A stretch of 48,264 nt of DNA from the IMG/VR virus record IMGVR_UViG_2718217789_000011; one strand, given 5' to 3'. This stretch comes from a virus. Taxonomy: Duplodnaviria; Heunggongvirae; Uroviricota; Caudoviricetes. A program made the position numbers. Positions 42,001-45,000 of the stretch are shown piece after piece; the first letter of the stretch is position 1, and each line of letters starts with the position of its first letter.

Positions 42001-45000
42001 GATCGTGACCCACCCTAACTACATAATCCTGTACAGAGTAGCTGCTTCAAGCATTGAGATTGTAAGCGTGACACATTCTCGGCGACAATTTCCCTTCTCT
42101 ATCTGAGTTGAACAATTTTCATACTCCCTCTTTCGAGGGATTTTTTTGCCCAAAACAACAATTAAAAACTGTTGACACAAAAACAGTTTTTTATTGTAGA
42201 TTACATACACCAACCACCCACCCCGCCCCACAGAACGCCGGGCAATACTTCGAGTTACCAAGCAGTGGTCAGGGGGTAAGTAGCCAGCCCGAGGCGTATG
42301 AACATGACGGCAGGGTTCAACTTTAATAACTATGCAGCAGGTTTTTGTTCCGCTACCCGGCGTTAAGGGGAAATGAGGTCAACATGGATACTATCGATCT
42401 TGGCAACAACGAATCTCTGGTGTACGGCGTGTTTCCCAACCAGGACGGTACATTCACCGCGATGACGTATACCAAAAGCAAAACGTTTAAAACCGAAAAT
42501 GGTGCCCGTCGCTGGCTGGAAAGAAACTCAGGTGAGTGATATGGATTTCGACACAATCATGGAAAAGGCTTACGAAGAATACTTCGAAGGCCTTGCCGAA
42601 GGCGAGGAAGCTCTCAGCTTCAGTGAGTTTAAACAGGCGCTTTCCAGTTCGGCAAAATCTAACGACTAACGGAGTTAAAGATGGAATTTAAAGATTTACT
42701 AAAAGAAATCCAGGAAATTGCAGCACATGCACTTCACCAACGTCTGAACGAAGTTGAATTAGAATCTGCAACGAAGAAATACATTGATAATATGGCTCGT
42801 AATGTGCGCGATGCGTTTACCGGATTGTACTCTGTTTCGGTAACAAACAACCAGAATACTGAAGAAACTGCAAAGCGGATTGCCTCGGTGATGGGTTTTC
42901 ATGTCGAGGAAAAGTATTCAAAAAAAGAATTCTGGAAAACTACAAAAAAATTGCAGAGCGAGAACTGTCATCTCCTGCGGCAATCGCTTCTTTCTATGAG
43001 GAAAGTTATTCAGATGACACAGGATTACCGGAACTGCTCTCATTACTTGAAAAATTCGGAATTATCATGAAAGGGACTGCGTCGGCGGATTTCACATACT
43101 CAATGATGGCTGCTGATGGAGAGCCTTTTCCTCCCGAACTTAAAATAACCCCCGGCAATCATCCGATGGTAACAATAAGAGCAATAGAGAATTACTGGTT
43201 TAATCCAGTTCAACAATAGTTGGTCTTTGCAATATTTTTAATGGGCCACTACGCCCTTAATCTCGGGCGGCGTTTAACTCTTTATTCAGTAAATCAGACT
43301 GATACTGATTTGGCTTTGTAATGATACTGTCAAGTTTTGATATATGAAATTCAACATGTTCTGGACAGTTAAAAATGTAATAACCGCCCTTCTCTAAAAA
43401 GCCAGAAAGAGCGTTACAGGCAGGGCATGGTTTGTTTGGCATTTTATCCTCCATTAAGGGCTGAATTAAAAATGGAGACCAACACGCTGCTACGTGTGGT
43501 CGTGCGCCGGACACAGATAAGAATCCGGCACTGACAGTTTACTGAAAGGATATATCCCTGAAAAGTCAGGGCATAACACGAAAGTGCACGGCGAAGTCCT
43601 TCTCCCTTAGAGCCGTCGTTAAATTTAATTCGACCGTGCGCTTCCGGTTGTGGCAATCCGCGAAATGGCGCGGCGGTAAGTATGGCGGGGTTATTCTTTC
43701 CCCGTTGAGGACACCGGGTTGTCAGGTTGACCATACGCTTAAGTGACAACCCCGCTGCAACGCCCTCTGTTATCAATATTCTGGTGACATTTGGCGGTAT
43801 CAGTTTTACTCCGTAACTGCTCTGCCGCCCTTTTTTAAAAGTGAATTTTGTGATGCGGTGAATGCGGCTCAGCGCACGCGGAACAGTTAAATCGGTAAAG
43901 CGGTCATTTGCTGAGTAACGAGAATGCTCTGTATCCGGCGTTAATTGTTAACTGGTTAACGTCACCTGGAGGCACCAGGCACCGCATCACAAAATTCATT
44001 GTTGAGGACGCGATAATGGAAAAGTTATCATGTAATGCCAGCACGTCTGAACTTCGTTTCGAAATTGGCGTTATCACTGGAGACAAAACATTTATTGAAG
44101 ACGCCATTAAGCAGAGAAAACTCGAGCAGGACCTGTTAAATGAAGTATGCATTCCTTCAATGCTGGCTCGTCTGGACCTGCTGCAAAAAGGATATAAACA
44201 ATGAATACAACATTTGCACTCGTTCTGACAGTTTATCTTGTTTCCGGCGAATCTCTTGAGCTGGTGACTGGCTTATACGGTTCAATGAAAGAATGCATGG
44301 CTGCAGCAGCAGAACAAAAAATTCCCGGTAACTGTTATCCGGTAGATAAAACTACTCACACTAATAATAACGAAATACCGGCAGGACTTTAAAACAGCAC
44401 CGTAATTAATATCCGGTTTCATTTTTATATGCCAGCAATGGCAGGGATTTGTTCACCCTTAAATCTGTAATGAGGTTAAAACACAATGAGTAAAATCTTT
44501 ATTTGCGCTGCTATTCCTGACGAACAGGCCATAAAAGAAGATAGCGCTGTTGCGGTGGCCACTGCCATTGAAGCCGGTGATGAGCGTCGCGCACGCGCAA
44601 AATTTCACTGGCAATTTCTGGAGCAATTCCCGGCAGCTCAGGACTGCGCTTATAAATTTATTGTCTGCGAGGATAAACCCGGCATACCCCGCCCTGCCCT
44701 CGATTCCTGGGATACCGAATATATGCAGGAAAACCGCTGGGATGAGGAGTCAGCTTCCTTTGTACCGGTCGAACCAGAATCCGATCCGATGAACGTCAAT
44801 TTTGACAAGCTGTCCCCTGAAGTACAGAACGCAGTCCTGGTTAAATTCGACACATGCGAAAACATCACCGTTGATATGGTGATTAGCGCACAGGAATTAC
44901 TACAGGAAGACATGGCAACATTCGGCGGACATATCGTTGAAGCGTTGATGAAAATGCCAGAAGTTAACGCCATGTATCCTGAACTTAAACTGCATGCCAT

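Follow-up and report, generated by a model that had tools for sequence, protein, structure and literature searches.

A one-base deletion from an A8 tract probably explains the interrupted reading frame of a dicBF-type operon gene in Shiga-toxin-type E. coli prophages

Two A-AAA-AAA slippery heptamers lie within one small prophage gene, and near them the protein-coding signal passes from frame 0 to the -1 frame. This arrangement raises the question of whether ribosomes are programmed to shift at the locus or whether the gene has lost a base. We examined it in the window, the whole 48,264-nucleotide stretch of viral DNA filed as IMGVR_UViG_2718217789_000011, which is a lambdoid prophage of Shiga-toxin-type (STEC) E. 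coli. A sequence-only reading of the window had offered three explanations: a dnaX-like programmed -1 frameshift giving two products, a one-base deletion from an A8 tract, or a sequencing error. Our analysis favors the second, and we put a probability of roughly 80% on the frame break being an ordinary one-base deletion from A8 that became fixed in a recent STEC prophage lineage and is not programmed.

The positions given in the sequence-only reading all hold. The gene starts at 42681, both heptamers are in frame, frame 0 ends at 43070 and no stop closes the -1 frame before 43219, giving conceptual products of 129 and 179 aa. The elements of the gene, all on the + strand, are as follows.

42681, +: ATG start of the open reading frame
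42681..43070, +: frame-0 ORF, RefSeq WP_000394511.1 "hypothetical protein", 129 aa
42681..42950, +: codons 1-90, encoding the native N-terminal portion
42906..42910, +: SD-like GAGGA on the 5' side of the first heptamer, spaced 10 nt from it much as in dnaX
42920..42926, +: first A7 run, codons S80-K81-K82 (TCA-AAA-AAA), in A_AAA_AAA register
42944..42950, +: second A7 run, codons T88-K89-K90 (ACA-AAA-AAA), in A_AAA_AAA register; site of the one-base deletion
42950..43219, +: what is left of the C-terminal domain in the -1 frame (89 codons, then TAG)
42951..43070, +: tail of the shortened product, read out of frame (LQSENCHLLRQ...NSELS, then stop)
42966..43019, +: inverted repeat with 8 bp arms and a 38-nt loop, 15 nt past the second heptamer
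43067..43070, +: ATGA, in which the frame-0 stop overlaps the -1-frame Met130 codon
43068-70, +: frame-0 stop TGA

WP_000394511.1 is made up of 90 native codons followed by a 39-codon out-of-frame tail and the stop. Residues 1 to ~55 form a YdfC/Ybl81-like N-terminal module, which is common among small prophage proteins. The -1 frame is free of stops from at least 42899 to the TAG at 43217-19, and the first start codon of the -1-frame remnant itself appears at 43067. The second heptamer starts 24 nt downstream of the first. By conceptual translation, a -1 shift at either run yields 179 aa, with the junction ...EFWKTTKK-IAERE... for the second run and ...SKK-RILENYKK-IAERE... for the first. The slippery motif alone is weak evidence, because A7 matches in the window exceed those in shuffled sequence (28 on both strands versus 13.2 ± 4.8) and a given A7 run falls into A_AAA_AAA register by chance one time in three. 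It is the alignment with homologues, not the motif, that establishes a real break in frame.

Judged from RefSeq annotation and Rfam, the studied gene stands third among the ORFs of a dicBF-type operon. Its neighbors are listed below.

41199-41600: repressor gene (RefSeq)
41628-42106, +: relB/relE-type toxin-antitoxin pair (RefSeq)
42384-42539: ydfA-like gene (RefSeq)
42541-42669: ydfB (RefSeq)
43779-43830, +: DicF sRNA (Rfam RF00039, 76.9 bits)
3' of DicF: dicB, then a DUF1482 gene (RefSeq)
44486-46957: 823-aa exonuclease gene, with the integrase gene next (RefSeq)

The dicBF-operon context is confirmed by the location of DicF between the studied gene and dicB. In K-12, the operon is repressed by DicA and its induction is toxic, mainly via dicB and dicF; no function is known for the ydfABC proteins (PMC5069750). 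The relB/relE pair is inserted between the repressor gene and ydfA and is missing from the ETEC and chicken-isolate loci (L002, L003). Across O157:H7, O121:H19, O103 and other strains, a 701-base segment spanning the site shows 100% identity. Elsewhere in the window, positions 29627-30143 and 34868-35042, both on the - strand, carry an STnc100 sRNA, three tRNA genes (Arg-tct, Arg-tcg and Met/Ile-type cat) and a sok antitoxin RNA. Stx-type lambdoid prophages typically carry such a set as late-region and accessory cargo.

Homologues were sought with the conceptually repaired 179-aa product as the protein query. Three intact relatives of 179/180 aa (P0001-P0003) showed 94%, 84% and 80% identity to the repaired product; they read EFWKTTKKIAERE or EFWKTAKKIAERE, giving the pattern EFWKT(T/A)KKIAERE. 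At the DNA level, intact 179-aa relatives were examined in five sequence backgrounds, and A8 was found at the second run in L004-6 (P0001), L007-8 (P0002), L009 (P0003) and metagenome contig L014. Each of these loci carries a single ORF, with second-run flanks as in the window. When one A was added to the window sequence, the translation fitted the family pattern residue for residue, and the TTKK-IAERE junction was identical to that of P0001. The comparison of tract length among homologues that the sequence-only reading had proposed thus returned A8 within an uninterrupted ORF, the first half of what it had named as refuting a programmed shift, and its suggestion of a one-base deletion was supported: intact close relatives have A8 exactly at this place, together with the predicted junction.

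An 80%-identical gene is present as a single 186-aa ORF in 2 complete genomes. In the DNA alignment with these 186-aa genes the first A7 run was identical, with the same frame on either side (SKKEFWK), and the sole 1-nt gap fell at the second run, where the 186-aa clade reads AAACGC and has no A run in its single ORF. The first run is also kept in the intact homologues, where it is read in frame 0 on either side, and the EFWK between the runs is in frame 0 across all homologues. The break therefore lies only at 42944-50. The sequence-only reading had placed the change of frame after both tracts, and this stands for the second run and fails for the first.

The region downstream of the break belongs to the same gene family. 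Within the family, the downstream -1 frame genuinely codes for protein: compared with the 186-aa clade, the C-terminal part in the repaired frame gave a dN/dS of ~0.2 at a dS of ~1.2-1.4. P0195, a distant homologue that stands alone, begins at the EFW motif; the C-terminal domain should accordingly start near residue 80 (~KKEFWK), so that the frameshift costs the protein essentially all of it. In an exhaustive profile search, relatives of the N-terminal module were numerous, but P0195 was the only distant homologue of the C-terminal domain. No copy of the gene was found in the INPHARED phage collection except for a weak 138-nt match, and no exact match to the tract region was found among GTDB species representatives.

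The A7 allele was present in 386 of 5426 complete E. coli genomes (7%), including O157:H7, O121, O103 and others, and the identical A7 sequence was also present in metagenome contig L015. The 129-aa product was found on more than 2000 contigs. All 386 carriers were at least 99% identical across the gene. Probes carrying A8 or A6 in the window flanks had an exact match in none of the 386 allele-carrying complete genomes; they aligned with at least one gap in each, and the matches listed span 87 nt, as expected for A7. The A7 state is real and fixed in its lineage. The only A6 record found (P0011) was rejected as an artefact of the L010 long-read assembly (GCA_008122345.1 VIFR01000002.1, a 5.3-Mb contig), in which a 6.3-kb stretch shows 12 homopolymer deletions when set against the window; these single-base deletions yield the spurious 105-aa "A6" product and also fragment ydaT and the exonuclease gene. 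Two proteins on the window background, P0140 (O111:H11 CVM9534) and P0144 (O157:H7 SE18018), are exactly the repaired 179-aa protein. Both are protein records from draft genomes and may be rare revertants or homopolymer miscalls.

Around the gene, the prophages of O157, O103, O121 and FORC_042 differ by ~0.1-0.2% outside mosaic blocks, so the A7 event is recent. These four prophages occupy different chromosomal sites. The overall 2.7% divergence of FORC_042 was considered as a test of selection and set aside: the differences are clustered in mosaic blocks, and their complete absence from the gene is therefore uninformative. Six of the 7 substitutions specific to the window lineage were non-synonymous, and three of them affect family-invariant residues (P7L, T17A and R163M), invariance being defined across nine family clusters. 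Common variants within the A7 lineage, P7L, A15E and Q11H, also fall at family-invariant residues, although numbers are small. High-frequency variant sites were seen at window positions 42700 and 42724 (protein variants P0167, P0168 and P0133). In L016 the ancestral P7 occurs together with A7, and P7L therefore arose after the frameshift or via recombination. The A7-lineage variants at invariant residues suggest decay, which, given the small numbers, we treat as supportive.

In the history that we propose, the intact form is a 179-aa protein with a helical YdfC/Ybl81-like N-terminal module and a lineage-restricted C-terminal domain. The comparisons above show that, in the lineage of the window, the ancestral A8 tract lost one A (ACA AAA AAA ATT to ACA AAA AAA TT), and we infer that this happened most likely by slipped-strand mispairing in replication. 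Standard translation now produces 129 aa, of which 90 residues are native and 39 are junk, leaving the C-terminal domain untranslated in the -1 frame and the protein presumably without function. The mutant allele then travelled on a young and highly mobile module from the early region of STEC prophages, and A7 is fixed in that lineage. Either a -1 slip or the addition of an A by RNA polymerase would restore the 179-aa product, and a small full-length fraction, on the order of 0.1-1% if the site behaves like unstimulated motifs, is probably made. We saw no sign that such a leak is selected or programmed, and it would be adventitious.

The appearance of the locus nevertheless resembles recoding. 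The break lies inside a perfect A_AAA_AAA heptamer, a second heptamer sits 24 nt upstream with GAGGA 10 nt before it, both are in register, and slippage at either gives a product of the same length, as a recoding site would. Proven IS frameshift sites use A_AAA_AAA (PMC4066793). A programmed -1 ribosomal frameshift of the dnaX or IS type, at 42944-50 and/or 42920-26 and helped by GAGGA, would set a fixed ratio of 129- to 179-aa products, both of them used. We consider this very unlikely. RNA folding 3' of both heptamers was no better than in shuffles (z +0.22 and -0.41), so that the search for a downstream hairpin or pseudoknot returned nothing significant. No stimulatory stem-loop or pseudoknot lies ~5-9 nt after the heptamer; the sole downstream inverted repeat, at 42966..43019, starts at 15 nt, and as a stimulator it is not credible, its folding energy being no better than that of shuffles. 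No Rfam frameshift element matched at the site even at E = 10. The GAGGA at 42906..42910 falls within the ~6-17 nt usual for an SD-like element ahead of a heptamer, but it is part of E-E-K codons that are conserved in most intact homologues too, and its dnaX-like spacing is probably incidental; at the second heptamer, the actual break point, the best upstream SD-like sequence is GGA. Intact A8 alleles have the same sequence on both sides of the second run, which shows no adaptation to the split, and the frame-0 tail is junk, running to a stop that occurs there by chance. Neither the split frame nor the slippery site is conserved across divergent homologues, which are all single ORFs, while close homologues have A8. 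The split is confined to one lineage of alleles at least 99% identical, and with no downstream structure the dnaX-like proposal is not supported. Deletion from a lysine-codon run of A8 itself yields a perfect heptamer at the break, so finding such a motif is not enough to call recoding. Transcriptional slippage fits no better as a programmed device: programmed transcriptional realignment occurs at An with n > 7 (PMC3711429) and known rescue cases have runs of ~9 or more (PMC5009743), so the run length of 7 is below these thresholds, and no adjacent hairpin was found. In E. coli, unstimulated heptamers frameshift at 2-10x a background of ~0.055%, and AAAAAAA is under-represented in genes, being indel- and slippage-prone (PMC4066793).

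Other explanations accept the deletion and assign it a use. In databases the mutant A7 greatly outnumbers intact A8 alleles, with A7 in 7% of complete E. coli genomes and intact A8 rare, and this excess could hint at selection; it could equally reflect hitch-hiking and heavy O157 sampling. The deletion might be a selected attenuating ("savior") indel, the full-length protein being harmful or needed in trace and slippage supplying the trace. The operon is toxic on expression (PMC5069750), and herpes thymidine kinase provides a documented precedent for the concept (PMC5009743). However, the toxicity is attributed to dicB and dicF, not to the studied gene (PMC5069750), the prevalence is explained by biased sampling of STEC and by hitch-hiking with a prophage module that is mobile, and non-synonymous changes at invariant residues point to decay and not maintenance; we judge an attenuating indel distinctly unlikely. 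The downstream frame has gained no new stop codon and just one lineage-specific change, but this means little as the allele is too young. It is also unlikely, if less plainly so, that A7 is a selected attenuator in which the tandem heptamers, the first with its dnaX-like SD, tune a small fraction of ribosomes or transcripts toward the 179-aa product. If true, this would account for a "broken" allele dominating STEC prophages and would constitute a modest new case of compensatory frameshifting in a prophage operon. A phase-variable contingency locus, in which the run would switch reversibly and at a useful rate from an off state (A7) to an on state (A8) and back, is highly improbable. Homopolymers are classic switch sites (PMC3711429) and the P0140 and P0144 draft assemblies encode the repaired protein, but these protein-level records could be miscalls, no complete genome of the 386 carries A8 or A6, A7/A8 is short for efficient switching, and the protein is not of the surface or restriction-modification type. 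Finally, a sequencing or assembly error in the window has practically no chance of being correct: miscalls at this tract do occur in poor assemblies (L010; P0016-P0018), but the same A7 was obtained in hundreds of independent finished genomes by many laboratories and platforms, as well as in the metagenome contig, and this part of the sequence-only reading was dropped.

For an ordinary deletion fixed in its lineage, the main value of the result is an annotation correction, affecting the 129-aa "protein", a 50-aa ORF and the phrog_1363 profile. WP_000394511.1, carried by ~7% of complete E. coli genomes, is what the frameshift has left of the protein, and its final 39 residues are read out of frame. 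The ATGA overlap creates the 50-aa ORF at 43067-43219 (+), listed as a gene of its own on 659 contigs (P0154). It is spurious and corresponds to codons 130-179 of the disrupted gene; termination-reinitiation at the ATGA could make a 50-aa fragment. The phrog_1363 profile (PHROGs v4, 139 positions) aligned end-to-end with the 129-aa product, including its out-of-frame tail (42681-43067, E = 1e-50), and an intact relative matched positions 1-105 only. The profile seems to have been built on frameshifted sequences, with the junk tail absorbed. No significant match for the protein was found in Pfam, NCBIfam, PADLOC or a PDB sequence search, and its PHROGs matches were to families of unknown function only. 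AlphaFold2 run on a 9-sequence alignment gave a pLDDT of 49.9, too low for a usable model, and a search of the literature on Ybl81 found nothing.

Comparison with known systems points toward a mutation. The lambda G/GT pair (G_GGA_AAG) is likewise a phage gene with a -1 slippery heptamer; its split is conserved across tailed phages and lies at the end of the upstream ORF, whereas in the studied gene an otherwise single ORF is interrupted in one lineage only. The window has a heptamer of the lambda type as well. A G_GGA_AAG in register was seen at 13537-13531 (-), at the 3' end of a tail-assembly-chaperone ORF (14016-13513), and the -1 frame runs into an ORF at 13486-13073, directly upstream of the 859-aa tape-measure gene (13092-10513). 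This looks like a genuine programmed -1 frameshift.

E. coli dnaX uses A_AAA_AAG with an SD-like element 10 nt upstream and a stem-loop downstream. The studied gene shares with it an A-rich X_XXY_YYZ heptamer in register and, at the first heptamer, GAGGA at 10-nt spacing. It differs in that its heptamer ends in A and not G, in having no downstream stem-loop, in that its split is not conserved, and in breaking at the second heptamer, which is without an SD-like element. The outcome of a shift is also reversed: in dnaX it produces the shorter gamma subunit, and here it would produce the longer, ancestral protein. In poly(A) transcriptional-slippage rescue, as in Buchnera/Blochmannia and in T. 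thermophilus dnaX and IS elements, an A-run frameshift is likewise repairable by +A in the mRNA; the run here is only 7, versus ~9 or more (PMC5009743) or n > 7 (PMC3711429).

The closest likeness is to frameshifted (pseudo)genes of prophages that arise by slipped-strand indels in homopolymers. Two features are unlike the usual case: the broken allele is widespread, and RefSeq lists an ordinary 129-aa protein instead of a pseudogene. In other respects the locus resembles them, with an n-1 change of an A run relative to intact homologues, a recent lineage that has no recoding signals and shows hints of relaxed constraint, and a non-essential accessory gene in a repressed prophage operon.
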